This document shows, in pieces, positions 15,547 through 64,000 of a DNA stretch of 64,000 nt (position 1 is its first letter; every line of letters begins with the position of its first letter). The stretch comes from an uncultured Bacteriovoracaceae bacterium (lineage in GTDB: Bacteria; Bdellovibrionota; Bacteriovoracia; Bacteriovoracales; Bacteriovoracaceae): positions 71,098 through 135,097 of the forward strand of contig CATLOT010000004.1 of assembly GCA_950054155.1 (NCBI GenBank), written 5' to 3'. Position numbers and translations under genes: made by a program. The notes beneath the pieces were generated by a model. It searched no databases. It was not told the origin of the DNA and saw nothing but the letters and a program-made list of their open reading frames with translations.

Positions 15547-16362
15547 ATGCTCAAAGTCATGCTTTCTCTTATTCTTCTTTTCTTGGTTTCTTGTGGTCAG
15601 GAAAAGAGTCACACCGAAATAATCCTTCTAAGCGGACAGAGTGAAAGCAACCTCTCTCTTTATTTTGATAAAATGCAAAGCTTTGAAAGTAAGGTCTTCT
15701 ATGAAAGAGGACATGAGCCTTACGTCGGAACCAGAATAAATGGTAAGGCTTATTGGGACTTTTTTGGGCGCAATATCTCTACTCTTTTGAGGTTAGAAGA
15801 GAGGTCGATTTCTTTTTCCTACCCGAAGACTCTAAGTGAAATGACAGAACTACGAGCGATAAATAAAGACTCGTGGACTACGCAAGAACTCATCTCAAAG
15901 TTCTCCGAACTGCCTGTCATCAAGAACACAGAGGCATTAGGAGCTGTTAATATTCTCTTTGTTGGCGGTCTTTTCAAAAATAATGATGGAGAATTGCAAA
16001 ATGGTGTGCTTGGAATTTATATCTCTGACACCAATAATATCGTTATCTTTAAAGACGTCGTAAAAGAAATTGAAGAAAATCAAGGAATAAGGGTAGCCCG
16101 CTTTTCCGAACAATCACTTCTTGTTCACGAGGTTGGCCATGCGATGGGTTTAGTTGAAAATGGAGTGCCAGCCCAAAGTGATCATCATGATAAAGAGCAT
16201 GGTTCTCATTGCACCAATCAAGATTGTGTTATGCACTGGCTTAATGAAGGTGCGACAGATATGTCCAACTATGTAAGAAGATTAATACTAACGGGTGATG
16301 AAAATCTCTTTGGTCAGCATTGTTTAGAAGATGCTGCTCAAAAAATACGAAGCTATCAATAA
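15547..16362 (+). CDS. Zinc metalloprotease-like lipoprotein (archaemetzincin-like HExxHxxG + CxxxxCxM)
   Basis: Lipobox 'LFLVSCGQ'. Contains 'LVHEVGHAMGL...HGSHCTNQDCVMHW', which resembles the M54 archaemetzincin motif. Confidence 0.45.
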   Translation: MLKVMLSLILLFLVSCGQEKSHTEIILLSGQSESNLSLYFDKMQSFESKVFYERGHEPYVGTRINGKAYWDFFGRNISTLLRLEERSISFSYPKTLSEMTELRAINKDSWTTQELISKFSELPVIKNTEALGAVNILFVGGLFKNNDGELQNGVLGIYISDTNNIVIFKDVVKEIEENQGIRVARFSEQSLLVHEVGHAMGLVENGVPAQSDHHDKEHGSHCTNQDCVMHWLNEGATDMSNYVRRLILTGDENLFGQHCLEDAAQKIRSYQ

Positions 16363-16373
16363 GAGGAATAACA

Positions 16374-17501
16374 ATGGAAAATGGTTTTAATGAAGAGGAC
16401 TATGCGACGTTTAAAGGAAGCGGAGGAGAACTCTTTTCTATTTGGATTGTTAATATTCTCTTAACCATTGTCACTTTTGGCATTTACTCAGCTTGGGCTA
16501 AGGTAAGAATCCGTAAGTATCTCCTTGTGATGACAGAATATAGAGATGAGCGTTTTGATTATCATGCTCGTCCATGGCCTATCCTAAAGGGGAGAATCGT
16601 CGTTCTTATTCTTTTTAGTGTTTATGCGGGATGTGCCGCTTTTTCACCCTATACCGGAGTGATTGGTATTATTCTTATTGCATTAGCTTTTCCCTATCTC
16701 CTCTTAAAGTCTTTTCAGTTTAATGTTCACTATACAAGTTATCGAAATGTTCGCTTTCGCTTAGAGGTTGATTATAAACAAGAGATTAGGGCCTACTTTT
16801 TAAGAGCTCTTCCTATAATAATTTCGGTTGGAGTGAGTCTCTTTATTGCACCTGTTGAGCGAATGAAGGGACAAGAGCTAGGAGTGAACGATTATATTGC
16901 CCTTGGATTATTTGCTGTGAACGCGCTTTATACCGCTCTTTATTTTGGTCCTTTCTTTCTAAATTGGCTCTATTCAAATCTCTACGGAAATCTTTATTAT
17001 GGAAATATCAAGTTCAGCTTTGATTCTAGTGTTAAAGAGGTGTGGAAGAAGATTGTATTACCCTACAGTGGATTAGTCGTGGGTATGCTCACCCTGCTCT
17101 TTGGAGGCGCTTTCTTTGGTGCCTTTTTAAATAATTTTCTCATTACAGGGATTGGGATGGTGCTCTTTTACCTCTCTCTTATTGCCGCTTCACTCTATTT
17201 TCCTTTTCTCGTCCAACATTATATTTGGAATAGGATTGCTTGTGGTGCCGGAAGAGCAAGCTTCTCTTTAACTTTTGGTCGTTATTTTAGAGTCAATTTT
17301 ATTAATTTTATTTTAATGGGATTAACCCTTGGTCTTTACTTTCCCTTTGCAAAGGTAAGAGTATTAAAGCTTCTCTATCAGCACAGGGCCCTCTCCTTAA
17401 CAAGTCTAGATGATGTTGTCCAAGTTGAGGCTTCCTCTCAGAGCGCTGTTGCCGATGAAGTGAGTGATGCATTTGATATTGATTTTGAGATAGGGATTTA
17501 A
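16374..17501 (+). CDS. DUF898 (YjgN) family multi-pass membrane protein
   Basis: 'FKGSGGELFSIWIVNILLTIVTFGIYSAWAKVRIRKY' and a repeat-like C-terminal 'GLTLGLYFPFAKVRVLK'. Start at ATG 16374 behind AAGAGGA. Confidence 0.7.
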   Translation: MENGFNEEDYATFKGSGGELFSIWIVNILLTIVTFGIYSAWAKVRIRKYLLVMTEYRDERFDYHARPWPILKGRIVVLILFSVYAGCAAFSPYTGVIGIILIALAFPYLLLKSFQFNVHYTSYRNVRFRLEVDYKQEIRAYFLRALPIIISVGVSLFIAPVERMKGQELGVNDYIALGLFAVNALYTALYFGPFFLNWLYSNLYGNLYYGNIKFSFDSSVKEVWKKIVLPYSGLVVGMLTLLFGGAFFGAFLNNFLITGIGMVLFYLSLIAASLYFPFLVQHYIWNRIACGAGRASFSLTFGRYFRVNFINFILMGLTLGLYFPFAKVRVLKLLYQHRALSLTSLDDVVQVEASSQSAVADEVSDAFDIDFEIGI

Positions 17502-53858: not shown

Positions 53859-55955
53859 TTAACGAAGTGAAACTTCAATTTTCTTAAGGCGTCCATCCCC
53901 AAGAGAAGTGGTTTTGACGACACTATCTTCACCAAGATGCTGGTGAACAATGCGACGGTCACGAGGATCAAGGGGCTTTAAAGTGAAAGGCTCTTTTGAG
54001 TTAAGAACTTTTTCTTTGGCCTCTTCAGCAAGAGCGATAATCTTTTCTTCTCTTTCTTTATTATTGCGATCAGGGCCACCGTTTCTGCCACGGCCTCGGG
54101 TGTTTGGCCTCCCATCACGACGGTTGCCACCTTTGTCATTTCTTTTGTCACCTCGGCGTGTATCTGTCTTCGCCCCATGGACACGGACATTCCACTTGAG
54201 TTTTGAGGGGAGAGTGATTTTATTAGCAAGGTAGAGGCGCATAATCTGCTCAAGGCCTTGAAGCATTTCACCTCTATTTCTTAGAAGGAGTCCTTCATCT
54301 GGACCATTGAAGCTAATATCAAGACTATCGCCTTTAAAGCTTACCTTCACTTTCACATCAAGATGAGAGAGGGTAAGGATTTCAATAATAAAGGGAAGAA
54401 GAAGCTTCTTATAATGAGCATCTAAGCTGTATTTGTAGGTGATCTTTTGCGGACCAAAGAAGAAATAGCGCTTTCTTCCTTTGGCAATAACCTCTTTCTT
54501 AAGAAGAGACTCATCTGTAATCATGTAGTAACCAAGAGCTGCTCTGTTGGCATCCTCTTCATTCTCATGAGTTGTGACGAAGAAGCGGCGATCGCGCTTC
54601 TCATCTTCACTGGCCACAAATTTCTTAAGGGGAGTGGGTAATGCTCTTTCAAGGGGGGCATCGTACTTTTCTGTCTTCATGCTCTTCTTCTCTCTCTTTG
54701 GGTTGCGATCTTTCTTTTGAGAAGAGCGGTTTCTGTCCACTGGCTTAAGTGTTTTCCCGTCAATATAAGGCTTTGGTGCAATTTCAGCAGTCACATCCTC
54801 ATTTGAGAGGTCAAGCTTTTCGATTTTGCTGTCAATATAAGCGTAGATGTCATCGAGGTATTCACAGTCTTCGTGGGCGCAAAAAGAAATGGCACGCCCT
54901 GACTTACCAGCTCGACCCGTTCGTCCAATACGGTGAACATAGTTTGCCGCTTCTTGGGGAAGATCGTAGTTAATAACAAGGTTGACGTCTTTGATATCAA
55001 GACCTCTAGCTGCAACGTCAGTACAGACAAGGATCGTTACTTCTTTGCTACGAAACTCTTCCATAAGACGTGTTCTCTTATTCTGAGGAAGACGTCCTGA
55101 AATAGGCTTCGCTTTAAAATCCATCAAACGCAGCCACTCAGCAACTAAGTGGGTTTGCATTTGCGTATTACAGAAAATAATGGCGTAAATATCTTCGTCT
55201 CTATTTTCACGCAGGATATTGACAAGATAGGGCATTTTTTCTTGTTTCGTGATCATCGCCAATGAGTGGTTGATGTGATCCACAAGAATAGAGTCTTCAT
55301 TAAGCTTAAGTTCCATGGGGTGGGACTTAAACTTATAAGCTGTTTTAAGTACTTCCATATTAGAAGTTGCACTCACCATGATAAGCTGACGATCGTCATT
55401 TACCTTAGAGAGGATAAATTCAATATCCTTTTGAAAGCCCATATCAAAGAGACGATCAGCTTCATCAAAAACCACGGCCTTCACTTGATCAAGTTTCACT
55501 GCCTTTTGCTTGATGAGATCAACTAAGCGACCTGGAGTCGCCACGAGGACACGGGTCCCTTTGCTGAGAGCAGACTTTTGCTTATCGATTGATTCACCAC
55601 CGATAAGACAGGCGGCATGGATACCGAGGTGCTTGCCAATTTGATCAAAGACTTTGTGTGTTTGTTGGGCAAGTTCTCTGGTCGGGCTTAGAGTCACATA
55701 CTCTACAAGCTTTTCGGTGTCAGCGCCTTCTTCGCTCTTATCTTCTGCGCGAAGGATTTGCTCAACAATAGGGATAGCAAAGGAGCCGGTTTTCCCACTG
55801 CCTGTTTCTGCTTGGGCAAAAATATCTTTGCCCTCTAAAATATGGGCAAGGGTCATTTCCTGGATAGGGGAGGCTTTTTCAAAGCCCATTTGCTGTAGAG
55901 AGTCTAAAAGGGGGGCGCTGAGGCCAAATTCATTAAAAGATGTCGTTGTTTCCAT
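53859..55955 (-). CDS. DEAD-box RNA helicase fused to a Jag/KhpB-like KH + R3H C-terminal module
   Basis: Q-motif 'FEKASPIQ', 'AQAETGSGKT', 'VFDEADRLFD', 'SAT' and 'HRIGRTGRAG'. C-terminal 'DVKVKVSFKGDSLDISFNGPDEGLLLRNRGEMLQGLEQI' (KH-like), an RG-rich linker, and 'LKPLDPRDRRIVHQHLGEDSVVKTTSLGDGRLKKIEV' (R3H). Confidence 0.85.
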   Translation of the reverse strand: METTTSFNEFGLSAPLLDSLQQMGFEKASPIQEMTLAHILEGKDIFAQAETGSGKTGSFAIPIVEQILRAEDKSEEGADTEKLVEYVTLSPTRELAQQTHKVFDQIGKHLGIHAACLIGGESIDKQKSALSKGTRVLVATPGRLVDLIKQKAVKLDQVKAVVFDEADRLFDMGFQKDIEFILSKVNDDRQLIMVSATSNMEVLKTAYKFKSHPMELKLNEDSILVDHINHSLAMITKQEKMPYLVNILRENRDEDIYAIIFCNTQMQTHLVAEWLRLMDFKAKPISGRLPQNKRTRLMEEFRSKEVTILVCTDVAARGLDIKDVNLVINYDLPQEAANYVHRIGRTGRAGKSGRAISFCAHEDCEYLDDIYAYIDSKIEKLDLSNEDVTAEIAPKPYIDGKTLKPVDRNRSSQKKDRNPKREKKSMKTEKYDAPLERALPTPLKKFVASEDEKRDRRFFVTTHENEEDANRAALGYYMITDESLLKKEVIAKGRKRYFFFGPQKITYKYSLDAHYKKLLLPFIIEILTLSHLDVKVKVSFKGDSLDISFNGPDEGLLLRNRGEMLQGLEQIMRLYLANKITLPSKLKWNVRVHGAKTDTRRGDKRNDKGGNRRDGRPNTRGRGRNGGPDRNNKEREEKIIALAEEAKEKVLNSKEPFTLKPLDPRDRRIVHQHLGEDSVVKTTSLGDGRLKKIEVSLR

Positions 55956-56026: not shown

Positions 56027-56719
56027 TTAAATTTTTGTGTCGCGTCTATTGGGGACAACTCTTTCTAGGCGCAGGGTGAGATCCTCAACGACTCTGCGAT
56101 GAAAGCCCGGCTCTTCATGACGGAGTTTTTCTTTATATTCAGCGATAGATACTCTTTCATAGGTCATCTCAAGAGTTTTAAAGAGCCTAAGTTTCCTCTC
56201 TCCCGGACTTTGAACATGGTGCAGGCCACCAGAGTAGCCAAGCAGGAGGTAGCCAGAATCGGTTTTAAGAAGAATATCTGCAATGCCACTTTTGATGGTC
56301 ATGGGATTTCCATGCTTATCAAGACCGTTGGGGCGCATCATTCTTCCCTCTGGTGCGATCACTATGAGGCTGCCTTTTTTTACCTTATCCATAAAGTCAT
56401 TCCATGAGCTGTCCCTCTTTCGCGTGATGCTGATGATCTGGGGGAAAACGACTTTATAGATCTTACCGACAATGGGGCGTTCCAGGGTGATATCAGCCCC
56501 CGGTAAAACGGCGCGGTGGATATTGTTAAAGTAGAAATGATTGGGAAGCGAAGAAAAGAGGAGTGGCTCAAAGAGGCTCGTGTGATTGAGAAAAGCGAAG
56601 ACATTAATATTTTCCCAAAAATCGGGGGTTGGATTGAGGATTTTTAATTCAAGTTGGTAAAACAGCTTTGAAAAAACTTTTACGGCCAAGGCTATCGTTA
56701 AGCTAAAGAGGTATTTCAT
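56027..56719 (-). CDS. Lysophospholipid/glycerol-phosphate acyltransferase (PlsC-like) family protein
   Basis: 'FAFLNHTSLFEP' (an HX4D-type box with E) and 'VIAPEGRM'. N-terminal TM helix. Confidence 0.5.
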   Translation of the reverse strand: MKYLFSLTIALAVKVFSKLFYQLELKILNPTPDFWENINVFAFLNHTSLFEPLLFSSLPNHFYFNNIHRAVLPGADITLERPIVGKIYKVVFPQIISITRKRDSSWNDFMDKVKKGSLIVIAPEGRMMRPNGLDKHGNPMTIKSGIADILLKTDSGYLLLGYSGGLHHVQSPGERKLRLFKTLEMTYERVSIAEYKEKLRHEEPGFHRRVVEDLTLRLERVVPNRRDTKI

Positions 56720-57453
56720 TATTTGTAGCCTCTAACATAATAGAGAATTTTAAGTCTTTCCTCTCGTTTCGGAAGGTAAGGGTGAGGGGAGGTTTCAAAT
56801 TTATGGTATTCCATTTTACGGGGCATGAACTCTGTACCGAGAATATCTTGTGCCGTTTTAAAAGCACTGTCTTCGTAAGAGTTTTCAATAGTAATGATAT
56901 TGACCCCATTATAATTCTTTTTGAGGTATTGGAATTTGCCAAGTTCCGCCTGATCAAGGGGTGCATCTAAAACATTTGTTTCACTCTTTTGATAGGAATT
57001 GGAGTAGTAATAACTAATCTCTCTAAGATAGGGATGCTTGGGAGTAAATATTAAATTGGTGACCCCTGGCAGAGTTTTAGCCACCTTAGTTTTCTCTCTT
57101 ATATAGTATAAAAAAGAGTCACTTTTAAATGAATTAAAGTAATTTATTAGACCGAGCAGACCAAAGAGTGCAAAGAGGCCTTGGCGTAGCAAGGGGGACG
57201 TTTTTAAGTCCACCATGGCACAGTATATTCCTAGAAAACCAAAAGGGAGGACAAAGGTATAGTGCTCCCAGGTTCCTAGTCTAATTCCCTTGAGAGAGAG
57301 AGTCATGAGAACTCCCATGGGGATGAGATAGGAGAGAGAGAGGAAAAAGAAGAGAGGCTGCTTTTTAGCTATTGCTTTAAAAAGAAGGTAAAAGGCGGCA
57401 AGAAAGCTCAAAGAAATAAAAAGAATAAGAAAGAGATTGAGGGCTGTGTTCAT
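56719..57453 (-). CDS. Membrane protein (4-5 TM + soluble C-terminal domain), possibly the distal half of a split GT-C-like transferase
   Basis: ATGA overlap with the upstream gene. Hydrophobic N-half and a soluble roughly 110-aa tail. Confidence 0.4.
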   Translation of the reverse strand: MNTALNLFLILFISLSFLAAFYLLFKAIAKKQPLFFFLSLSYLIPMGVLMTLSLKGIRLGTWEHYTFVLPFGFLGIYCAMVDLKTSPLLRQGLFALFGLLGLINYFNSFKSDSFLYYIREKTKVAKTLPGVTNLIFTPKHPYLREISYYYSNSYQKSETNVLDAPLDQAELGKFQYLKKNYNGVNIITIENSYEDSAFKTAQDILGTEFMPRKMEYHKFETSPHPYLPKREERLKILYYVRGYK

Positions 57454-58280
57454 CTCGAACTTCCTCTTGGCTTTTCAATTTCTCTTTCTCTTACAGCTCC
57501 TAGTAAAAGATACTCATAGAGAAAGAGCGGGTCCTTGTGGTCAACCTTTTCCCAGTGTTGGGCCAAGGGATTTGAAAAGCGTGGGTTTGCGACCCAGTAA
57601 AGAAGACCAGAGCATGAGAAGAGAAGAATAAGATTAGCAAGAAAGAAGGTCTTTATATTCTTTAAGTTTTTAAGAGGAATGAGTGAGCCTAATTGCAAAA
57701 GAGTAATCAGAATAAAGTAGTAACTGACACTCAATCCACAAAAGTTAACAAGAATAAGTGCCTTACTCATCCTTTTCTTTTTTAAGGAACTGAAAAATAA
57801 GCAGATACTCAAGAAGGCGAAGAGTAAGGTGAAGGAAGTTGGGGCGATAATACTTCCCATTCCATACCACCAGGTTCCAAGAGAGGTGAAGAGAGTCATA
57901 AGGGCCGCTTCACTTGAATGGGTTAAGCTCTTAAAGAAGGAGAAAACCTGCCAGAGGCAGAGAATATTGAGGATGAGAAGGGGAAGTCTCATTAAAATTT
58001 CATTTTCTTGAGTAATGAGGGACCAACCTCGATAAAAATAGAGCAACCCAGCAGGTTGAATCCGGAGGTATTCTCGCCAGAGGTTATCCCAACGACTTCC
58101 TTCCATCGTGTCTTGAGTAAAAATACTCACTTTAGAGGGAGGAGGGGTGTGGAAATAGCGAGTTACTTTTATCTCTTCAAAATGAAAAGGCCTATTAAGG
58201 GTAGGGATATAAAGGAGAAGAAATATACAACCCGTGATAAGAAGAGGAATAAGGGTATCTAAATTTCTTCGCTTTACCAT
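57450..58280 (-). CDS. Polytopic membrane protein, GT-C (ArnT/PMT-like) N-terminal-half-like
   Basis: About 7 TM helices with an early periplasmic loop 'RPFHFEEIKV'. Weak resemblance only. Confidence 0.35.
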   Translation of the reverse strand: MVKRRNLDTLIPLLITGCIFLLLYIPTLNRPFHFEEIKVTRYFHTPPPSKVSIFTQDTMEGSRWDNLWREYLRIQPAGLLYFYRGWSLITQENEILMRLPLLILNILCLWQVFSFFKSLTHSSEAALMTLFTSLGTWWYGMGSIIAPTSFTLLFAFLSICLFFSSLKKKRMSKALILVNFCGLSVSYYFILITLLQLGSLIPLKNLKNIKTFFLANLILLFSCSGLLYWVANPRFSNPLAQHWEKVDHKDPLFLYEYLLLGAVREREIEKPRGSSR

Positions 58281-58289
58281 ACTATGATT

Positions 58290-59294
58290 TTACCAGAGAT
58301 CATCATCGAGCAGAACTCCTGTCGCGAGATTGACCTTTTGAGGGAGCACTCCCTTCATATTGAGTGCGTCATAAAATGCTTTGACGAGGATGAGATTAGA
58401 AATTTCTGTCTCTTTATAGTTTCCTTGAAACTTGTGGTCTTTCCAATTCGCCCTTTGGTTTATGGTCTTTTTCAAATCAAAAGAAGAGTAGGGGCTATTA
58501 ATTGGTTTTTGAAGTTGTTCCCTAATTGAAAAATAATGGACTCCACCAATCCCTATCACTTCTTTATGAGAAATAGCGTCTCGAATTTCCTCTGGGACAT
58601 CAACGCTTGCTATTTTCTTTGCTAGGTTTTCAGCCCACTTTGCAGTGTGATGACCAATAGGATTAGGACTACCACGTTGTCTCCCTTGATAATGGATAAT
58701 ACGATTCTTAAAGCTTACAGAGGCAAGTTTTCCTAAGTAAGTGTGAGGAGTATTTCCTATGAGGGTCGTAATTTGCATGCTCCCTCCACCAATATCCCAA
58801 ACAACAATGTCGTCTTTTGGCTTTTGAGTAAGGCCTACGGCACCCCAAAAACCTAATGTTGCTTCTTTCTTTTGATCAATAATGGTAATGGGAAAGTTGA
58901 CTCTCTTTGATAAGGACTGAACAAAAGCACCTCCATTAGAAGCCTGTCTAAAAACTTCAGTGGCAACTGCAGATATTTGAGTTCCCGACTTTCTAAAGGG
59001 AGAAAGGAAAAGATTTAATTCTTCACTGACTGAATTAAGCATTGTTTCAGGGATAGTATTCTTATGAAGGTGAAGGGATTCTTTGTATTTGAAAGGGAAG
59101 TTTTTTTCCTTGATGACGGACAGAATTTCTTTCTTGCAGCGGTCCACCTTAGCGATAATTACTTTAGTGCTTCCCGATCCCATATCAAGAGCGGCTCTTT
59201 CTTCATGGCAGTGGAAAGGGGTCTTATTGTGAGGAAGTTGGCTACATGAGAGAAAGAAAAAGAATGAAAAAATGATAAAAACTTGAGTATTCAA
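58290..59294 (-). CDS. ASKHA-fold phosphatase of the Ppx/GppA - CD39 NTPDase type, predicted lipoprotein
   Basis: Lipobox 'FFFFLSCSQ'. 'ALDMGSGSTKVIIA', 'AVATEVFRQASNG', 'QKKEATLGFWG' and 'VWDIGGGSMQIT'. Confidence 0.55.
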   Translation of the reverse strand: MNTQVFIIFSFFFFLSCSQLPHNKTPFHCHEERAALDMGSGSTKVIIAKVDRCKKEILSVIKEKNFPFKYKESLHLHKNTIPETMLNSVSEELNLFLSPFRKSGTQISAVATEVFRQASNGGAFVQSLSKRVNFPITIIDQKKEATLGFWGAVGLTQKPKDDIVVWDIGGGSMQITTLIGNTPHTYLGKLASVSFKNRIIHYQGRQRGSPNPIGHHTAKWAENLAKKIASVDVPEEIRDAISHKEVIGIGGVHYFSIREQLQKPINSPYSSFDLKKTINQRANWKDHKFQGNYKETEISNLILVKAFYDALNMKGVLPQKVNLATGVLLDDDLW

Positions 59295-60445
59295 TTGGCC
59301 CTCGCTTCGTACTCCTTCTTATATCGTTTCATTGTATCTAGCGCGTAAACTTTGTCTATGGCAGGTAACGAATGAATGAGGGGGCTTAGTACTCGATGGG
59401 ATAAACAAAGTTCGTCCCAAGTGTAGGTGCTAAGCATATGGCCGATTATTTCACTTCTCTTTTCTTGAGAAAGAGTGAGAAGGGAGTGCTCAGAGGGACG
59501 GTAGCAAAAGGTAATAAAGGGATGAATGTTGCGGCTTAAACAATAGTGAAGAGCATTGGGAATTTCACGCCAATTATCTTTTTGAACCAAGAAGTTAAGG
59601 TTCATATGTAATGGAGTTAATTGGTTCTTAATTCTCTTTTCTTCATACTCTCTAAAGTGATCAATTGTTTTGAGAACTTTGGAAAGAATTCCTGGTTTTC
59701 TAATTTTGTGGTAGGTCTCTGGATCAAAACTATCAACCGAAAGAATAATATTTTTTATTTTAATTTTTTCAAGGGCACTTTCAACTCTCGTATTCCAGTT
59801 CCAATGAGCATTTGTTGTAATCGACCAGAGACAATTCGGATTCACAAGGGAGACTTCATCAATGAGCTTATAAGTGTCTTGCTGTAAGAAGGGCTCACCC
59901 GAGAGCATGTCAATTTCTCTTAGGTGAGGAAAGAGCTCTTTTCTCGCTGGATTCCAAAAATTTTCATCCGTATAGAATCCATTTGGTAATTCCCATACGT
60001 CACACATCTGGCATTGGAGATTGCAAAAGCCATTGAAGTTTGCCGTTAGCCGTAAAGGGCTTGAAGTTTTAGCTTTCAGAGTTTTGGGATCGTCAGGGAA
60101 CATTTTCCCTAGCTGGGGACAGAGATTACAGCCCTGATCATCAATCTCAGTTCGGCAAGTTCTAGCTCTCCCTTCGAGGAACTCTTGGCGCCACTGTTGT
60201 GCCTTCGTTCCATTCCAAATCTCTTGCCAGGTTTGCTCTTTAAGATTTCCAAGAGAATGTTCTGTACCCTTGTGGCGGCAGAGACCAACGGAACCATTTG
60301 GTTCGAGGATAATATTAACAAAGGGCATGAGACAAAATTGCTGGGGAGAAAATCCCCCAGCAATGATTTGATTGATATTTACTTGAACTTCTTCAAGTCT
60401 GTTTTGAATTAAGGGATGATTGAGATAAGCGCTCTTTTTACTCAC
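59291..60445 (-). CDS. Radical SAM enzyme with an N-terminal Twitch/SPASM-like cysteine motif
   Basis: CX3CX2C 'FCNLQCQMC' at residues 141-148. N-terminal 'C38-x12-G-x4-C56 ... LGNL...W.EIW ... C97-x8-C106-x2-C109'. 4-bp and 8-bp overlaps with its neighbours. Confidence 0.7.
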   Translation of the reverse strand: MSKKSAYLNHPLIQNRLEEVQVNINQIIAGGFSPQQFCLMPFVNIILEPNGSVGLCRHKGTEHSLGNLKEQTWQEIWNGTKAQQWRQEFLEGRARTCRTEIDDQGCNLCPQLGKMFPDDPKTLKAKTSSPLRLTANFNGFCNLQCQMCDVWELPNGFYTDENFWNPARKELFPHLREIDMLSGEPFLQQDTYKLIDEVSLVNPNCLWSITTNAHWNWNTRVESALEKIKIKNIILSVDSFDPETYHKIRKPGILSKVLKTIDHFREYEEKRIKNQLTPLHMNLNFLVQKDNWREIPNALHYCLSRNIHPFITFCYRPSEHSLLTLSQEKRSEIIGHMLSTYTWDELCLSHRVLSPLIHSLPAIDKVYALDTMKRYKKEYEARAN

Positions 60446-60893
60446 TCTTAAGTTTTGACTCTAGCTCCTCAATCTTTGTCGCCTGTTCATCAACTTTGGC
60501 GCTGAGTTCTTTAACGGCTTCAATCAGCATAGGAGCGAGGTGAGCATAGTTAACGTATTTGTAACCTGTTGCATCTGTTTTCACAGCGAGCGGAACGACT
60601 TTTTCTAGCTCTTGGGCCATTACCCCTGTTTGTTCCTCTTGAGAAAAGTTCTTCTCTGGGAACTCGCTAGTTTTATAGTGGTATTTGAACGCTTGAATTT
60701 TATTAATATTTTCGAGGCTATTTTCTAAAGGATAAACATCTTCTTTAAAACGAATGTCACTTCCAGCAAAGACATCGAGATAGACACTGTCATTGAGGAC
60801 TTCATTCTCAATTTCTTCTAGGTTGAAGTCATTGATTCCACCAAATTGATAGGGTTTCTTACCGTCTTTTTTATCATCAGTTGAATGTGCCAT
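60438..60893 (-). CDS. Miniature Peptidase_S74 (intramolecular chaperone auto-processing) domain protein, 151 aa
   Basis: 'AG-S45-DIRF-K50-EDVYPL', 'IQAFKYHYK', 'GVMAQELEKVVP', 'KYVNYAHLAPMLIEAVKEL' and a terminal coiled coil 'KVDEQATKIEELESKLK'. Only 44 aa precede the catalytic Ser. Confidence 0.7.
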   Translation of the reverse strand: MAHSTDDKKDGKKPYQFGGINDFNLEEIENEVLNDSVYLDVFAGSDIRFKEDVYPLENSLENINKIQAFKYHYKTSEFPEKNFSQEEQTGVMAQELEKVVPLAVKTDATGYKYVNYAHLAPMLIEAVKELSAKVDEQATKIEELESKLKSE

Positions 60894-60943
60894 TGATTCC
60901 TCGCGTCTTAAATGATGTTTATTCAGATACCTAATATCATTAC

Positions 60944-60949
60944 ATTATA
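60944..60949 (-). promoter_or_regulatory. Perfect TATAAT -10 hexamer about 50 nt upstream of the S74 gene
   Basis: The minus strand reads 'AAAAGGTTATAATG'. The -35 region is weak. Confidence 0.3.
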
Positions 60950-61034
60950 ACCTTTTCTGCTTTAAGAGAAAAACTTTTGAAAGAAACAATGTAAGTTATT
61001 GATTTTACTTTTATCTTGTCAAGGTATGCCTGCC

Positions 61035-61832
61035 TTATGAGCCAGTTTTATAGGCTCCTCGATGGAGATTCTTGTAAAGGGCGAGGGCTTTTTTAACATT
61101 GCCCCCTTGGAAGGCAAGTTTGCGTTCGTGAATAACCAGGGCCTTATTACAAATTTGAGAGAGGAGCTCTGCATTATGGGAGATGAAGAGGACTGCGCCC
61201 GACTCATAAATGACCTTGTGCATTCGCTCTTTCATTTTATCTTGGAAGAACTCATCGGCTCCATCATAGACCTCATCAAGGATGAGCAATTCTGTCGGCC
61301 TTGCTGTGACAACGGAGAGGAAAAGTCGTGCTTGCATACCTTTTGAGTAGGTGTAAAAAGGAGCTTCTTGAAATTTTCCAAGATCTGAAAAGACGAGGGC
61401 TTCTTCAATAACGTCACGAAGCTCACGCTTAGAGAGAGAAGGAAAGAGAAGTTCTCCAAGAAGATAGGCGTTTTCTTTGCCAGTTAGGCTAAAGTGAATG
61501 GCACTTGCCGTAGAAAATACAGCCTGAATATTGTCTGGCTTATTTATGATTCCCTGCTGGGCCATAATCATTCCAGCAATACAGCGGCACAAACTCGTTT
61601 TACCCGAGCCATTTTCACCAATGACGGCCATGATATCGCCCTTTTCCATGGAAAAACTTATATCCTCTAAGACCGGATGAACATTCTTGCGTTCAAGCAA
61701 AGTTTTAACTGGAGCCCGTAAAAGCTGAACGAAAGCATCTCTTACAGTGTGACCTTTTTGGAGGTCGAGATCAAAAGAGAGGTGTAAGTTCTTTACCTCT
61801 AGTAATGGCTTAGATGTAGTAGTAGAGGTCAT
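61035..61832 (-). CDS. ABC exporter ATP-binding protein, Wzt/TagH/KpsT (polysaccharide/polyol-phosphate export) type
   Basis: 'GENGSGKTS', 'LTGKENAYLLGELL', 'YSKGMQARLFLS' (the YSxGM signature variant of this class) and 'LLILDEVYDGADEFF'. Confidence 0.8.
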   Translation of the reverse strand: MTSTTTSKPLLEVKNLHLSFDLDLQKGHTVRDAFVQLLRAPVKTLLERKNVHPVLEDISFSMEKGDIMAVIGENGSGKTSLCRCIAGMIMAQQGIINKPDNIQAVFSTASAIHFSLTGKENAYLLGELLFPSLSKRELRDVIEEALVFSDLGKFQEAPFYTYSKGMQARLFLSVVTARPTELLILDEVYDGADEFFQDKMKERMHKVIYESGAVLFISHNAELLSQICNKALVIHERKLAFQGGNVKKALALYKNLHRGAYKTGS

Positions 61833-62571
61833 TTTTTCTTTTCTTCCAGTAGAGAAATGAGATTAAGGCAAAGAATAAACTTATGAGAAAAGCCTTAATA
61901 AGAGACATCCAAAAGTAACTTGGTTCAAAGTTATAAACAGCACTTCTAAAGGCTTCAACGAGATAAAAGAGAGGATTCATGTCTATGATCCAACGATACT
62001 CGGTTGGAACAAACTCTACAGGATAGAAAATGGGAGTGATGAAATACATGATATTGAGAATAAATGTGAGAACAAATTTAGTGTCTCTGTAAAAGACATT
62101 CATGAGGGAGGCAAGAGAGCTAATACTTGCTATTGAAATTAGTAATACAAGGATGGGAAGGGGGAGATAATAAAACGCGGATTGTTGATTCTCCGTAAGT
62201 ATCATCATGGGAATTAAGATGATAACGAAGGCAATGAGAAAGTTGAGAAAATTATCAAGGACCTGACAGAGAATGAGGAGAAAGGGATTTATTCTAAATC
62301 CTCTCAAAAGATTATGAGAATTGTAGAGGTAGGGAATACTCATCTCCAAAGTGCTTGTAATGAAGATCCAAGGGAGTAGGCCACCCAGTAAGAAGAGGCT
62401 ATAGTCAGGTAATTCAATTTTTAAAATCTTTCTAAAGACAACACTTTGAACCGAATAAAGGATTATGGGATTGAGGATCACCCAAAGAAATCCTGCAAAG
62501 GTTTTACGGTATCGGGCTTTCATATTAGCAAGCGTCAACGATACTAATTGTCGTGAAAAGATTTGAATCAT
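61810..62571 (-). CDS. ABC-2 type exporter permease (Wzm/TagG-like)
   Basis: Six TM helices and N-terminal 'ANMKARYRKTFAGFLWVILNP', typical of ABC-2 permeases. 23-bp overlap with the ATPase gene. Confidence 0.75.
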   Translation of the reverse strand: MIQIFSRQLVSLTLANMKARYRKTFAGFLWVILNPIILYSVQSVVFRKILKIELPDYSLFLLGGLLPWIFITSTLEMSIPYLYNSHNLLRGFRINPFLLILCQVLDNFLNFLIAFVIILIPMMILTENQQSAFYYLPLPILVLLISIASISSLASLMNVFYRDTKFVLTFILNIMYFITPIFYPVEFVPTEYRWIIDMNPLFYLVEAFRSAVYNFEPSYFWMSLIKAFLISLFFALISFLYWKKRKNDLYYYI

Positions 62572-62575
62572 TATT

Positions 62576-63073
62576 TTACTTTACCAGAAGAACTTTCATT
62601 TTTTGCCATAAGCTTAAGTTTTTATTTTTTACTAAGCCTATTATTTGATCGGGTTTAAGGGGGTAGTCATTTTCACCACGAAACTTGAGGCACTGAGTTA
62701 TATATTGTTGATGGGTGTGGTCTATTTTGGTGAGGAAATGGACATTTAATCTGCCAGCTTGGTCAAAGACGATGATATCAAAATGCTTGAGCTCTTTAAG
62801 ATCCGCGATCTTTTGAACCTCAATGAGGTCTCCAATCTTGATGAGAGGAACCATAGAGTCACTGACGACTTTAAGTTTAACCACACTCTCATTAACAAGC
62901 TGTTTTTTTAGTATTTGTAGGTCAAATGTTCTCTGATCCTCTTTGGCTACCATAATCGCCATGATATCATAGGAGAGTGAAATTAGCGGTAGTAAAAAAA
63001 CAAAATCAATCTTCCTGGCGAAGTTGCCAGAGTATAACGAGTAATCTTGAACTCGCCTACGAGGAGTTTTCAA
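62576..63073 (-). CDS. S24/S26-family (signal-peptidase-I/SipW-like) serine peptidase; start uncertain
   Basis: 'VVSDSMVPLIKIGDLIEV' (SM...GD box) and 'FDIIVFDQAGRLNVHFLTKI'. TTG 63073 gives an N-terminal TM helix. The alternative starts ATG 62962/62953 would avoid overlap with the divergent GT gene. Confidence 0.55.
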   Translation of the reverse strand: MKTPRRRVQDYSLYSGNFARKIDFVFLLPLISLSYDIMAIMVAKEDQRTFDLQILKKQLVNESVVKLKVVSDSMVPLIKIGDLIEVQKIADLKELKHFDIIVFDQAGRLNVHFLTKIDHTHQQYITQCLKFRGENDYPLKPDQIIGLVKNKNLSLWQKMKVLLVK

Positions 63074-64000
63074 AGGCTCTTACTTTTTCTATATCCGATG
63101 AGGCCACGATCCCTGAGCTGGATAGGTTAGCGAAAGAAATCTTTGAGAATAAAGTTACTCATCTTGCGTGGGTCGATCATTATCCTCATCCTGGTGCATT
63201 TTTAGAATATCTGAAGAATAATTTTTCCGATGAATTGCAAGAGAATCCTTTGAAAGTGGTCATTCACATTTTTGGAGACTTTATTCTTCATAGTCCTCAG
63301 TGGTTTAAGCACTTTTCAAAATGGAATGGAGAGAGTTTAAAAATTCAGTTAGTGGCCGCTTCCCATAGACAGGGGAGGCTTGTCGATCAATTCCTGAAAG
63401 AAAGTGGATGTGAGATCATTCCCTTTCCCGTTAATAAAAGTGAATTTTCTTTTGATCAGAAGTTGAGAATAAGTAAGCGAAAGTCACTCAACGTAGAGGA
63501 AGAGGAGCACCTCTTTTTTTACAGCGGTCGACTAAGCTATCAAAAAAATATTTTTGATATTATAAATGGCTTCTGCCAATTCTATAAAATGACGAATTCC
63601 CACTGTCGCTTATTAATAGCCGGTCCAATGGATGACCTCGGAATTCCCTATATTGGAAAAGAAGCTCTTGAAGGGACATTCTATTTTCATTGGGAAGAAT
63701 GCATGAATTCCTTACCCGAAGGTATCCGAAATAAAATTACCTATCTTGGAAACGTTACTCCTTTGGAGTTAAAAGAATACTATTGTGCCGCTGACACCTA
63801 TCTGAGTATGAGCTGTCATAATGATGAGGATTATGGAATGGCCCCGGCAGAAGCTCTGATGTGTGGACTTCCCTGCATTCTCAGTGATTGGGGAGGATTT
63901 TCTTCCTTTAAGCACTATTTACCAAATGTTGTTACAACGGTTCCGATTAACCTTAGCCAACACCGCCAAGCTCCAGATAATTTGAAGGTGACAAAGGCTA
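62977..64000 (+). CDS. Glycosyltransferase family 4 (GT-B), 3' partial (runs off window end); start uncertain
   Basis: My translation of frame 1 is open from 62965 to 64000. It contains 'LFFYSGRLSYQKN', 'LLIAGP' and the EX7E box 'EDYGMAPAEALMCGLPCILSDWGGF' (first Glu at 63826, about residue 284 from GTG 62977). This ORF is not in the supplied track because no stop lies in the window. Confidence 0.7.
   Translation, partial: MKLAVVKKQNQSSWRSCQSITSNLELAYEEFSKALTFSISDEATIPELDRLAKEIFENKVTHLAWVDHYPHPGAFLEYLKNNFSDELQENPLKVVIHIFGDFILHSPQWFKHFSKWNGESLKIQLVAASHRQGRLVDQFLKESGCEIIPFPVNKSEFSFDQKLRISKRKSLNVEEEEHLFFYSGRLSYQKNIFDIINGFCQFYKMTNSHCRLLIAGPMDDLGIPYIGKEALEGTFYFHWEECMNSLPEGIRNKITYLGNVTPLELKEYYCAADTYLSMSCHNDEDYGMAPAEALMCGLPCILSDWGGFSSFKHYLPNVVTTVPINLSQHRQAPDNLKVTKA

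Follow-up and report, generated by a model that had tools for sequence, protein, structure and literature searches.

The systems closest to the locus described here are those in which RRE/PqqD-dependent radical-SAM (rSAM) enzymes mature a peptide, i.e., PQQ, mycofactocin, sactipeptides and other rSAM-SPASM RiPPs. To our knowledge, PqqD is a peptide-binding domain wherever it has been characterized, and the gene logic of mycofactocin brings together PqqD, a SPASM-type rSAM enzyme, a peptidase and a glycosyltransferase. Fused precursors have a precedent in the borosins (OphMA-type), in which a RiPP core is covalently joined to a folded, autocatalytic domain. S74/ICA domains are familiar from phage endosialidases, tail fibres and eukaryotic MYRF, where they form the C-terminal end of proteins hundreds to thousands of residues long, and cleavage sets free either a transcription factor or a trimeric fibre; all those we know of act in cis only. 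An earlier note on this DNA could name no described system with the gene set reported here, and our search of the literature found none.

The window, i.e., the whole stretch of 64,000 nucleotides that was analysed, comes from an uncultured Bacteriovoracaceae bacterium. Its ORF listing has nine minus-strand genes between 63073 and 56027, followed by the start of a plus-strand arm:

56027 to 56719, minus strand: PlsC-type acyltransferase, 230 aa (PF01553, 27.5 bits; GA 23)
56719 to 57453, minus strand: polytopic membrane protein, 244 aa, paired with the upstream 276-aa protein
57450 to 58280, minus strand: PMT_2-like (GT-C-like) membrane protein, 276 aa, a borderline family call
58290 to 59294, minus strand: Ppx/GppA-like ASKHA protein, 334 aa (PF02541, 70.8 bits)
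59291 to 60445, minus strand: rSAM enzyme, 384 aa, with a SPASM/twitch domain N-terminal to its CX3CX2C core
60438 to 60893, minus strand: S74 mini-protein, 151 aa (PF13884, 54 bits, residues 45-104)
61035 to 61832, minus strand: ABC-2 exporter ATPase, Wzt/TagH-like, 265 aa (PF00005, 67.6 bits)
61810 to 62571, minus strand: ABC-2 exporter permease, Wzm/KpsM-like, 253 aa (PF01061, 54.5 bits)
62576 to 63073, minus strand: small S24/S26-type Ser/His peptidase (SDSM Ser73 and His112)
62977 to 64000, plus strand: divergent GT4 glycosyltransferase, 432 aa (PF00534, ~60.7 bits), first gene of the plus-strand arm, ending 275 bp past the window

As the earlier note had read it, the nine genes share one strand and the sole real gap among them is the 141 nt at 60894-61034, before the S74 gene; all other neighbours overlap by 1-23 nt or lie 4-9 nt apart. 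That note also expected the locus to continue past base 64000, and it does: these genes lie at one end of a ~16.5 kb gene cluster, of which the window holds the minus-strand arm and ~8.4 kb lies beyond the window end. The decisive parts are found there, namely a PqqD peptide chaperone (PF05402, 49.9 bits), two further N-terminal-twitch rSAM enzymes (one a true NF033640 match at 307 bits, the other a paralogue 45% identical to the window's rSAM), a carbamoyltransferase and a second GT4. They are accompanied by two unknown genes and a degenerate S24-like paralogue that has lost both Ser and His. On sequence grounds, we read the whole as a RiPP-like glycopeptide pathway whose precursor would carry a built-in, self-cleaving S74 release domain, a reading to which we give roughly an even chance.

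The cluster was found only in predatory Bdellovibrionota, and was compared across 52 loci of that phylum, from at least 50 species, each centred on a single-copy S74 mini-protein. Five same-genus genomes have contigs that span the cluster, and in all of them gene order is collinear all the way from the far rSAM to the Ppx-like gene; shorter same-genus contigs keep the same order over the part they cover. This bears out the claim that the two halves of the locus belong together. Across the 52 loci the order is shuffled and the same families recur: N-twitch rSAM enzymes, the family of the window's rSAM, in 47, PqqD in 41, GT4 in 37, DegT (25), carbamoyltransferase and ABC-2 genes in about 24 each, GT2 in 10 and GT-C-like genes in seven. 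The direct neighbour of the mini-gene is a PqqD or rSAM gene in 39 loci, and one or the other lies within three genes of it in 45; in Halobacteriovorax marinus SJ, the N_Twi rSAM, PqqD and S74 genes follow one another in that order on one strand. Furthermore, of 41 relatives, 10 have the mini-protein, PqqD and the orthologue of the 384-aa rSAM together, and the other 31 have none of the three. ABC-2 exporter genes lie within 10 kb of the mini-gene in 22-24 of the 52 loci across the phylum, so the refutation that the earlier note had envisaged, halves that are never syntenic elsewhere, is not what the genomes present. Gene content, conservation, adjacency and co-occurrence are all direct observations here, and they identify the conserved core as the S74 mini-protein, PqqD and several unusual rSAM enzymes. 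That the genes are unrelated operons brought side by side by chance, with no common function, is hardly credible: a promoter-like box of its own precedes the S74 gene and the tail genes are confined to one lineage, but the collinearity within the genus, the recurrence of the same families in 52 rearranged loci and the perfect co-occurrence in 41 genomes already contradict it.

The downstream genes have a narrower history. The earlier note had treated S74, rSAM, phosphatase, membrane and acyltransferase genes as an operon, and as a conserved unit this fails, since only S74 and rSAM extend through the phylum. Among the 52 loci, no homologue of the Ppx-like, PMT_2-like, 244-aa or acyltransferase proteins was found in any locus outside the window's genus, and all four are additions peculiar to that genus. 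The Ppx-like protein begins with a lipobox (lipoprotein signal FFFFLSC), its PF02541 match covers only the N-terminal half of the profile, and its gene follows the rSAM gene in all eight genus loci and is absent elsewhere. Of the two membrane proteins that had been called GT-C-like, the 276-aa one, present in four same-genus genomes only, is borderline (PF13231, 25.5 bits vs GA 26.1, E 1.8e-5), and the 244-aa one has no Pfam or NCBIfam match, even at E<1. The 244-aa gene is kept as its own ORF beside the 276-aa gene in four genomes (28-34% identity), so the split is natural; an origin by frameshift was rejected. In the acyltransferase an HX4E box (HTSLFE) replaces HX4D, as had been noticed at the outset, with the PEGR block present, and HTSL[FC]E and APEGRM are kept in six orthologues. 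Its gene, found in six of the 52 loci, every one in the same genus, is sometimes split from the operon by other genes, and is a genus-restricted accessory or neighbour gene.

The S74 mini-protein consists of an N-terminal peptide (residues 1-44) and an S74/ICA domain (residues 45-151) predicted to be self-cleaving. By sequence it matches PDB entries 6F45, 7DC3 and 8JOV, whose Ser and Lys line up with Ser45 and Lys50, and its AF2 model (pLDDT >90 at residues 45-150) finds the MyRF ICA domain 7DC3 as its best Foldseek match (E 1.5e-6, TM 0.63-0.69). The fold matches MyRF ICA and the phage chaperones; like the gene content, it is a result of the analysis and not part of the proposed scheme, as are the catalytic dyad and the conservation profile given below. 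AF2 confidence is low at residues 1-40, so a leader/core split is neither supported nor refuted by structure. The part just upstream of the Ser45/Lys50 dyad is the following:

60762 to 60851, minus strand: conserved peptide, codons 15-44, YQFGGINDFNLEEIENEVLNDSVYLDVFAG, ending at the predicted cleavage site between G44 and S45

This peptide is the best-conserved part of the protein: among 65 family members, mean pairwise identity is 0.76 over residues 15-44 vs 0.42 over residues 45-150. The invariant residues (F17, G18, L25, I28, L33, Y38, D40, V41, F42, A43, G44, S45 and K50) cluster at positions 38-45. In large fibre proteins of 400-3700 aa, homology to the mini-protein begins only at residue 43-45, and residues 15-44 are therefore specific to the mini family. 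We propose from this sequence pattern that the peptide is the substrate or product region. It contains no Cys, Trp or other residue indicating a known rSAM crosslink, and none of the 52 loci has a second conserved small ORF as a possible peptide substrate. An identity of 76% over 30 residues is unusual for a RiPP core, and the stretch may serve structure or binding instead.

The window's genome has no other S74 protein, which rules out the mini-protein as a servant of large S74 fibres. It could still act in trans on another partner, as a trimerisation chaperone or cap rather than a substrate, and a candidate exists: a pilin-like protein of 750-820 aa, with tail-fibre-like repeats and no S74 domain of its own (in H. 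marinus it has an N_methyl motif), lies beside the cluster in each of the nine same-genus genomes. S74 domains in general, to judge from the PDB matches, are indeed folding and trimerisation chaperones. Action in trans would nevertheless depart from the cis action of known S74 domains, the pilin-like gene is in just seven of the 52 loci besides the genus, and neither the PqqD/rSAM adjacency nor a non-chaperone N-terminus that is the best-conserved part would be explained. We judge this role very improbable.

The rSAM enzyme whose start overlaps the S74 stop codon is atypical, as the earlier note had observed: its SPASM domain (residues 38-98, E 6.9e-11) lies ahead of the Radical_SAM domain (residues 137-268; motif CNLQCQMC). 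It scores 92.9 bits against NF033640, under the 170-bit cut-off, and we know of no characterized N_Twi rSAM enzyme. Five other N_Twi copies in the same genome are solitary and without PqqD, so the family is not intrinsically peptide-directed. Distant loci add B12-rSAM, Cupin_8/JmjC and further SPASM rSAM proteins, enzymes typical of heavily tailored peptides. A small molecule or cofactor derived from the peptide, in the style of PQQ or mycofactocin and later glycosylated, is another candidate product. The rSAM/PqqD machinery would crosslink a few invariant residues near the cleavage site (e.g., Y38-L-D-V-F-A-G44), excision would be aided by S74 self-cleavage exposing Gly44 and by the S24-like peptidase, and the rest of the mini-protein would be scaffold. 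A single-copy gene for a highly conserved precursor recalls PqqA and MftA, the combination of PqqD, SPASM-type rSAM, peptidase and glycosyltransferase parallels mycofactocin, and the invariant residues are concentrated at 38-45. Yet the entire 30-residue stretch is conserved and not just a short motif, no redox-enzyme partners were seen in the locus of the window's genome, and the export pump and many sugar genes favour an extracellular product; a cofactor of this kind seems to us distinctly unlikely.

Two further features bear on how the genes are expressed:

60894 to 61034, minus strand: 141-bp gap, promoter-like region, with a -10-like GGTTATAAT at 60944-60949
60337 to 60364, minus strand: hairpin with an 11-bp stem followed by TTTTGT, a terminator-like hit (MFE -19 kcal/mol)

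Also in the gap are an RBS (GAGGAA, 60897-60902) and, at 60992-61004, a conserved box resembling GTAAnnTCAAnnACTTA. TATAAT is invariant in six same-genus loci, the rest of the spacer being 53% identical. With a conserved promoter-like box of this kind in front of the S74 gene, each half of the cluster is probably transcribed as a unit of its own. The hairpin falls within the 5' end of the rSAM gene, ~75 nt past the S74 stop, and is a possible attenuator; one other genus member has a hairpin and T-run of different sequence at the same place, and in the remaining ones hairpins are weaker or elsewhere.

Upstream of the gap, the detection of ABC_tran, ABC2_membrane and GT4 domains upholds the earlier reading of an ABC-2 export set with a divergent GT4, whose best NCBIfam match, TIGR04157 (glyco_rSAM_CFB), reaches 52.8 bits, far under the 400-bit cut-off. 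The ATPase gene (22 of 52 loci) encodes a protein without a C-terminal glycan-binding extension; its best NCBIfam match is galactan Wzt (130.7 bits, cut-off 400), followed by TagH (118 and 98), with the next family at 78. The permease (24 of 52 loci) matches Wzm/RfbD (49 bits) and KpsM (39 bits), each under its cut-off. Genes for the S24-like peptidase (22 of 52 loci), Wzm and Wzt recur across loci as a triad in that order. The 'S26-like' label given to the peptidase is weaker than the earlier note had it: the Pfam scores (S24 20.4 bits, S26 19.7 bits) and the best NCBIfam match (TIGR02228, 39 vs a cut-off of 51.85) are below threshold, and the SDSM Ser73 and His112 are nearly invariant across 20 family members. 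Its start is uncertain: ATG 62962 and ATG 62953 are likelier than TTG 63073 and would give ~125-128 aa with no membrane anchor; the orthologues are mostly ~105-150 aa, without a hydrophobic N-terminal extension.

An exporter of this type invites the view that the cluster makes a surface glycan or glycosylates a fibre. In such a scheme, the GT4s and carbamoyltransferase (with DegT and GT2 elsewhere) would build a lipid-linked glycan for export by Wzm/Wzt, GT-C-like enzymes would move it to a surface protein, e.g., the adjacent pilin-like fibre, the rSAMs would act on sugars, and the S74 mini-protein would be merely structural or an adaptor. The best matches of the pump are consistent with this, as are the DegT, GT2 and GT-C-like genes counted above (25, 10 and seven loci), an epimerase/dehydratase in the H. 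marinus locus, and the pilin-like protein in nine same-genus genomes and seven other loci. A short rSAM-SPASM enzyme beside DegT also resembles the BtrN/BtrS logic of a sugar dehydrogenase with an aminotransferase. Against it, the gene found most often right beside the mini-gene is that of the peptide-binding PqqD (22 of 52 loci), the pump genes have a peptidase gene linked to them, and among the ORFs of the locus in the window's genome none matched an initiating phosphoglycosyl transferase or a ligase family. Pilin-like and GT-C genes are in a minority of loci, and the extreme conservation of residues 15-44 is left unexplained. We regard a glycan cluster as fairly unlikely.

Our preferred reading, a glycopeptide pathway, arrives where the earlier note did, at a peptide or fibre that is modified, perhaps with sugars, and exported; that the product is an exported, modified, probably glycosylated peptide with the S74 mini-protein as its precursor strikes us, from the genes, as an evenly balanced call. 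What each step does chemically, in which order the steps come and what species is exported are all inferred. A promoter of its own, in the 141-bp gap, would drive the precursor gene, and the stand-alone PqqD would bind residues 15-44. These would be modified by the N-terminal-twitch rSAM enzymes, one translationally coupled to the precursor gene and two beyond the window. GT4 enzymes would attach a sugar, tailored by the carbamoyltransferase in the window's genome, with DegT aminotransferases, short rSAM-SPASM enzymes and amidohydrolases taking part as well in relatives. The S74/ICA domain would trimerise, and its Ser45/Lys50 dyad would cut the G44-S45 bond, so that no separate follower protease would be needed to free the N-terminal peptide; the small soluble peptidase would then trim the product for export by the Wzt/Wzm-like pump. 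Two observations sit less easily with a glycopeptide: the exporters most like the pump are those of Wzt/TagH type, which carry lipid-linked glycans, and the DegT, GT2 and GT-C genes of relatives suggest ordinary sugar chemistry.

Set beside the known systems, the cluster shares with the PqqD/rSAM RiPPs a stand-alone PqqD adjoining SPASM/twitch rSAMs and a small conserved protein, along with a peptidase and an ABC exporter, and with mycofactocin its glycosyltransferases. It differs in that the candidate precursor is 151 aa with a folded C-terminal S74 domain predicted to cleave itself, the auxiliary-cluster domain of the rSAMs is N-terminal instead of C-terminal, the conserved peptide is free of Cys and Trp, and the exporter is of Wzt/Wzm type. 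The pump has the domain pair and the best families of Wzm/Wzt and TagGH, but scores far under the equivalog cut-offs, lacks the carbohydrate-binding extension on Wzt and an initiating transferase in the locus, and has its genes in a triad with that of a small peptidase. That peptidase has the SxSM Ser motif, conserved His and small size of soluble S26-type proteases (SodX of Ni-SOD) and of ER/archaeal-type signal peptidases (SipW), and differs in scoring under all curated cut-offs, in orthologues without a membrane anchor and in a second paralogue in the cluster without Ser and His. The mini-protein agrees with known S74/ICA domains in HMM, fold, Ser-Lys dyad and C-terminal coiled-coil helix, but has only 44 residues before the cleavage site, more conserved than the domain itself, and its gene is chromosomal, single-copy and inside a biosynthetic cluster. 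Borosin precursors are fused to the methyltransferase that modifies them and have a C-terminal core, whereas the domain fused here would be a release protease and trimeriser, with the peptide at the N-terminus.

An ORF map of the window, with families assigned by Pfam and NCBIfam scans, resolved nine genes between 63073 and 56027, all on the minus strand as the earlier note had stated, and placed the divergent GT4 it had noticed as a plus-strand gene starting at 62977. Neighbouring genes of the run overlapped by 1-23 nt or lay 4-9 nt apart, the exception being a 141-nt spacer at 60894-61034, i.e., the one sizeable gap that had been read before the S74 gene. In order of transcription, the run comprised:

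Minus strand, first of the run: small S24/S26-like peptidase, under all curated cut-offs
Minus strand: ABC-2 permease and ATPase, best NCBIfam matches Wzm/KpsM and Wzt/TagH, under the cut-offs
60438-60893, minus strand: mini-protein, 151 aa, nearly nothing but a Peptidase_S74 domain (54 bits)
59291-60445, minus strand: radical-SAM enzyme, 384 aa (rSAM384), SPASM/twitch domain at residues 38-98, then CX3CX2C core at residues 141-148
Minus strand: Ppx/GppA-like protein with a lipobox
Minus strand: PMT_2-like membrane protein, 276 aa (PF13231, 25.5 bits against a GA of 26.1)
Minus strand: membrane protein, 244 aa, no family match
Minus strand, last of the run: PlsC-type acyltransferase with HTSLFE, an HX4E variant

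The acyltransferase scored over the gathering score of PF01553 (27.5 bits) and has the PEGR block, and the reading of HTSLFE at its HX4D box held up, the first block being HX4E, not HX4D, in all six orthologues. The label of GT-C-like given to the membrane proteins was harder to sustain, as the PMT_2-like protein fell just under GA and the 244-aa protein matched no family at all. Directly 3' of the acyltransferase lies a gene (53859-55955, minus strand) that is kept beside the locus in several genus members; it encodes a DEAD-box helicase of 698 aa, whose C-terminal extension is long and basic.

That the locus goes on past the window end was borne out when the next 11 kb, to the contig end, was fetched (the window being G000:C4:71098-135097, where G000 is its own genome; a coordinate in L002, the fetched stretch that reaches past the window end, is the window coordinate minus 53902). 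The genes found there were:

Plus arm, remainder beyond 64000: GT4, 432 aa in full
Plus arm, beyond the window: two family-less conserved proteins, about 330 and 337 aa
Plus arm, beyond the window: NodU/CmcH-type carbamoyltransferase
Plus arm, beyond the window: second GT4
L002 15243-15533: PqqD, 96 aa (PF05402, 49.9 bits against a GA of 23.4)
L002 about 15628-16923: NF033640 N_Twi_rSAM, a true member (307 bits, cut-off 170)
L002 16909-17304: S24-like paralogue, 131 aa, with HDRM replacing SDSM and the conserved His gone
Beyond the window: third radical-SAM enzyme, 45% identical to rSAM384
G000:C4:144554-145925 (L002 19552-20000 and L003, another fetched stretch): large pilin-like or tail-fibre-like protein, flanking the cluster

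The second S24-like paralogue is probably non-catalytic. Neither the 337-aa nor the about 330-aa protein had a sequence match in the PDB, profiles included. The AF2 model of the former was confident (pLDDT 91.6), and its Foldseek neighbours were all non-significant (E >= 0.36) and mostly nucleotidyltransferases of the Pol-beta type (ANT(4''), MNT, AAD(9)); taken with the invariant S61-D62-x-D64 and E93, these weak structural neighbours hint at a nucleotidyltransferase likeness.

The synteny check that had been proposed was run, and the whole arrangement, 16.5 kb from the far radical-SAM gene to the Ppx-like gene, was collinear in all five same-genus genomes whose contigs were of sufficient length, with shorter same-genus contigs showing the identical order over the stretch they covered. 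Among 41 relatives, eight further same-genus genomes and another genus of the family had full-length orthologues of the mini-protein (59-75% identity), and within those relatives the mini-protein shared an identical set of ten genomes with PqqD and the orthologue of rSAM384. A DegT/DnrJ/EryC1 aminotransferase gene of ~1.2 kb lies between PqqD and GT4 in G007, G009 and G005 (loci L016, L017 and L018, respectively) and is missing from that position in G000, G001 and G002. The S74/rSAM/phosphatase/membrane/acyltransferase operon of the earlier note did not hold up as a conserved unit: the Ppx-like gene is always 3' of the radical-SAM gene in the genus, the position of the acyltransferase varies there, either adjacent or parted from the cluster by other genes, and no homologue of any of the four tail genes (Ppx-like, PMT_2-like, 244-aa and acyltransferase) could be detected at loci beyond the genus. 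The PMT_2-like/244-aa pair was present in four genomes and as two ORFs every time, and is therefore a natural split; phmmer did not connect this pair with the GT-C-like proteins of 586 aa that other loci encode.

Beyond the genus, a length-restricted search for the mini-protein gave 128 clusters, and the best 120 of these were of 138-205 aa, mostly 140-170, with PF13884 in all, and included BMS_3130 of Halobacteriovorax marinus SJ. A pattern scan with one genome per species found 50 loci, the labels of which were all Bdellovibrionota or unclassified MAGs (Halobacteriovoraceae, Bacteriovoracaceae, some Bdellovibrio and Pseudobdellovibrio, and Oligoflexia). Across 401 evenly sampled Bdellovibrionota genomes, the mini-protein was present in 35, one copy each and in two families only. 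When all ORFs of 52 Bdellovibrionota loci around the mini-gene were clustered into families, the counts were as follows:

Families in the 52 loci (number of loci holding each family)
N-terminal-twitch radical-SAM: 47 (97 genes)
PqqD: 41
GT4: 37
DegT aminotransferase: 25
Carbamoyltransferase: 24
337-aa unknown: 24
Wzm: 24
Wzt: 22
S24-like peptidase: 22
About 330-aa unknown: 19
Short rSAM-SPASM: 17
Amidohydrolase: 12
GT2: 10
GT-C-like: 7
Pilin-like: 7
B12-rSAM: 6

Gene order was strongly shuffled among these loci. The mini-gene was directly beside a PqqD or radical-SAM gene in 39 of the 52 and within three genes of one in 45; H. marinus SJ has N_Twi rSAM, PqqD and mini-protein, in this order, on a single strand. 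Such comparative data ruled out a chance juxtaposition of unrelated operons. A prophage origin was also rejected on the grounds of the even GC content across the region (0.36-0.47), the conserved chromosomal position, and the lack of any phage-family match besides S74 in the scanned genes. A distant cluster member from a metagenome (L026/L027) has three Cupin_8/JmjC proteins, a B12-binding radical-SAM enzyme and four SPASM radical-SAM enzymes around the mini-gene, a gene content that points to far more extensive tailoring in part of the lineages.

The mini-protein itself, for which NCBIfam has no model, matched PF13884 over residues 45-104 (54 bits against a GA of 22), and S45 and K50, the S-D-x-R-x-K dyad at the predicted cleavage site G44|S45, were invariant in 65 sequences and aligned with the 6F45 Ser and Lys as well as with the corresponding 7DC3 positions. 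Its AF2 model had pLDDT >90 at residues 45-150 and low confidence at residues 1-40, and the best Foldseek match was 7DC3 (MyRF ICA; E 1.5e-6, TM 0.63-0.69), followed by the phage chaperones 3GUD and 3GW6. That the mini-protein serves as a chaperone acting in trans is, in our judgement, very improbable. The best conserved segment in alignments of 20 and 65 members was not the S74 domain, it was residues 15-44, with the consensus YxFGGIxEFNLEEIExEVLNDSVYLDVFAG and a mean pairwise identity of 0.76 vs 0.42 for residues 45-150; the invariant residues were F17, G18, L25, I28, L33, Y38, D40-G44, S45 and K50. No hydrophobic signal sequence could be read in the mini-protein. It is the only S74 domain of G000, which has no large S74-terminated fibre, and relatives have up to eleven. 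The possibility that the conserved N-terminus is a generic S74 neck was discarded, as the alignment with fibre proteins sets in only at residue 43-45. In the 401 genomes, the S74 matches other than the mini-protein lay in ORFs of 193-3700 aa (nearly all >350) and had their query start between residues 39 and 45, in nearly every case at 43-45. The N-terminal peptide is thus peculiar to the mini family, with S74 homology beginning at the cleavage site.

The radical-SAM enzyme of the window, which had been called atypical, has its SPASM/twitch domain N-terminal to the radical-SAM core, and the auxiliary domain is so placed in each of the three such enzymes in the G000 cluster. Its score against NF033640 was 92.9 bits, under the curated cut-off of 170 bits, and it thus belongs to a related subfamily and is not an NF033640 member. 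Six NF033640 members over the cut-off were found in G000 and none in 14 control genomes. Five of the genes lie outside the cluster (C9:84769-85923, C5:18116-19423, C3:149296-150459, C33:31451-32488 and C5:130203-131351), and four N-terminal-twitch paralogues elsewhere in G000, three of them over the cut-off (those on C9, C3 and at C5:130203-131351), were solitary, with no PqqD or sugar genes. PqqD-family proteins are, to our knowledge, peptide-binding chaperones in every characterised pathway. A route to a small molecule of the PQQ or mycofactocin kind seems to us a distinctly unlikely explanation of the cluster.

The permease and ATPase domains of a Wzm/Wzt exporter are both there (PF01061, 54.5 bits, and PF00005, 67.6 bits), but the matches did not reach equivalog level, with Wzt at 130.7 bits vs a cut-off of 400 and Wzm at 49.3 vs 380. 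The supposed S26-like peptidase keeps Ser73, in SDSM, and His112, which are retained in the S24-like family, but it scored under the curated HMM cut-offs (S26, 19.7 bits vs 22.9; TIGR02228, 39 vs 51.85) and its orthologues have no membrane anchor. Most of them measure about 105-150 aa, with no hydrophobic N-terminal extension, and the G000 gene therefore probably starts at ATG 62962 or 62953, not at TTG 63073, and with such a start it would no longer overlap the GT4 gene. No initiating phosphoglycosyl transferase was matched by Pfam among the ORFs of the G000 cluster, and one may be encoded elsewhere in that genome.

The pump, with its likeness to Wzt/TagH, speaks for the main rival reading, namely that the cluster serves a glycan or the glycosylation of a fibre and that its radical-SAM enzymes act on sugars. 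The DegT, GT2 and GT-C genes are in keeping with such a role, and so is the linked pilin-like protein, which is truncated by the contig end in G000 (457 aa visible; orthologues 703-823 aa), is encoded by a single-copy gene adjoining the cluster in the same-genus genomes whose contigs allow the check, and has a counterpart of 804 aa inside the H. marinus SJ cluster, where it carries an N_methyl prepilin motif. However, the presence of PqqD, the linkage of a peptidase to the pump and the conservation profile of the mini-protein all speak against it, and we consider it unlikely.

The alternative that we favor is a RiPP-like pathway with the mini-protein as its precursor, a reading we hold with about even confidence. 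It draws on the binding of peptides by PqqD elsewhere and on the mini-protein being the only conserved linked small protein, there being no other conserved small ORF in the 52 loci to serve as an alternative precursor. It also draws on the most constrained part of the mini-protein being a 30-residue peptide that ends at the predicted self-cleavage site. The data directly show the gene content and its linkage, the fold with its catalytic dyad, and the conservation, and we infer every chemical step beyond these. PqqD and the radical-SAM enzymes would modify the N-terminal peptide of the mini-protein, GT4 and the tailoring enzymes would attach sugar to it, the S74 domain would trimerise and free the peptide by self-cleavage, and it would then be processed by the S24-like peptidase and exported by the ABC-2 pump.

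The region around the mini-gene also offered hints of its regulation. The spacer before it is poorly conserved overall, with a G-TATAAT box (60944-60949, minus strand) that is invariant in six same-genus genomes and an upstream GTAAnnTCAAnnACTTA-like box (60992-61004, minus strand) that is mostly conserved in them, and from these two boxes the mini-gene probably has its own, possibly regulated, promoter. Some 75 nt past its stop, and within the first 110 nt of the radical-SAM ORF, is an 11-bp GC-rich hairpin followed by TTTTGT (60337-60364, minus strand), a candidate attenuator that could shift the balance from enzyme towards precursor; at the equivalent place, a single genus member shows a hairpin of other sequence and a T-run, and the remaining members do not clearly have one.

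The single-copy cluster and the 76% identity of the peptide suggest that its role in the biology of these marine predators is conserved, e.g., as an adhesin, weapon, signal or cofactor, and since the cultured H. marinus SJ carries the cluster (BMS_3130), the hypothesis is directly testable. If true, it would provide a new RiPP precursor architecture, in which a follower domain taken over from phage fibres is folded, trimerises and cleaves itself, and the first functional context for an uncharacterised family of N-terminal-twitch radical-SAM enzymes. More specifically, and with rather less than even confidence, we propose that these predators make a ribosomal natural product of a new class: an N-terminal peptide of 30-44 residues, modified by PqqD-guided N-terminal-twitch radical-SAM enzymes and decorated with tailored sugars, released by an S74 module of the phage-tail-fibre type that is built into the precursor, trimerises and cleaves itself, and exported by a Wzt/Wzm-like pump with a small peptidase. 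Our literature search found no paper tying the S74/ICA domain to radical-SAM or PqqD systems, only general BGC surveys, and nothing specific on the S74 mini-protein in Bdellovibrio or Halobacteriovorax, or on BMS_3130. As a kind of system, a radical-SAM/RRE peptide pathway with export is already known; what is new is the precursor architecture, the N-terminal-twitch enzymes, the set of sugar-tailoring genes and the restriction to predatory bacteria. Unlike the known S74/ICA domains, that of the mini-protein does not terminate a long trimeric fibre or other large protein, and has only 44 residues before its cleavage site.
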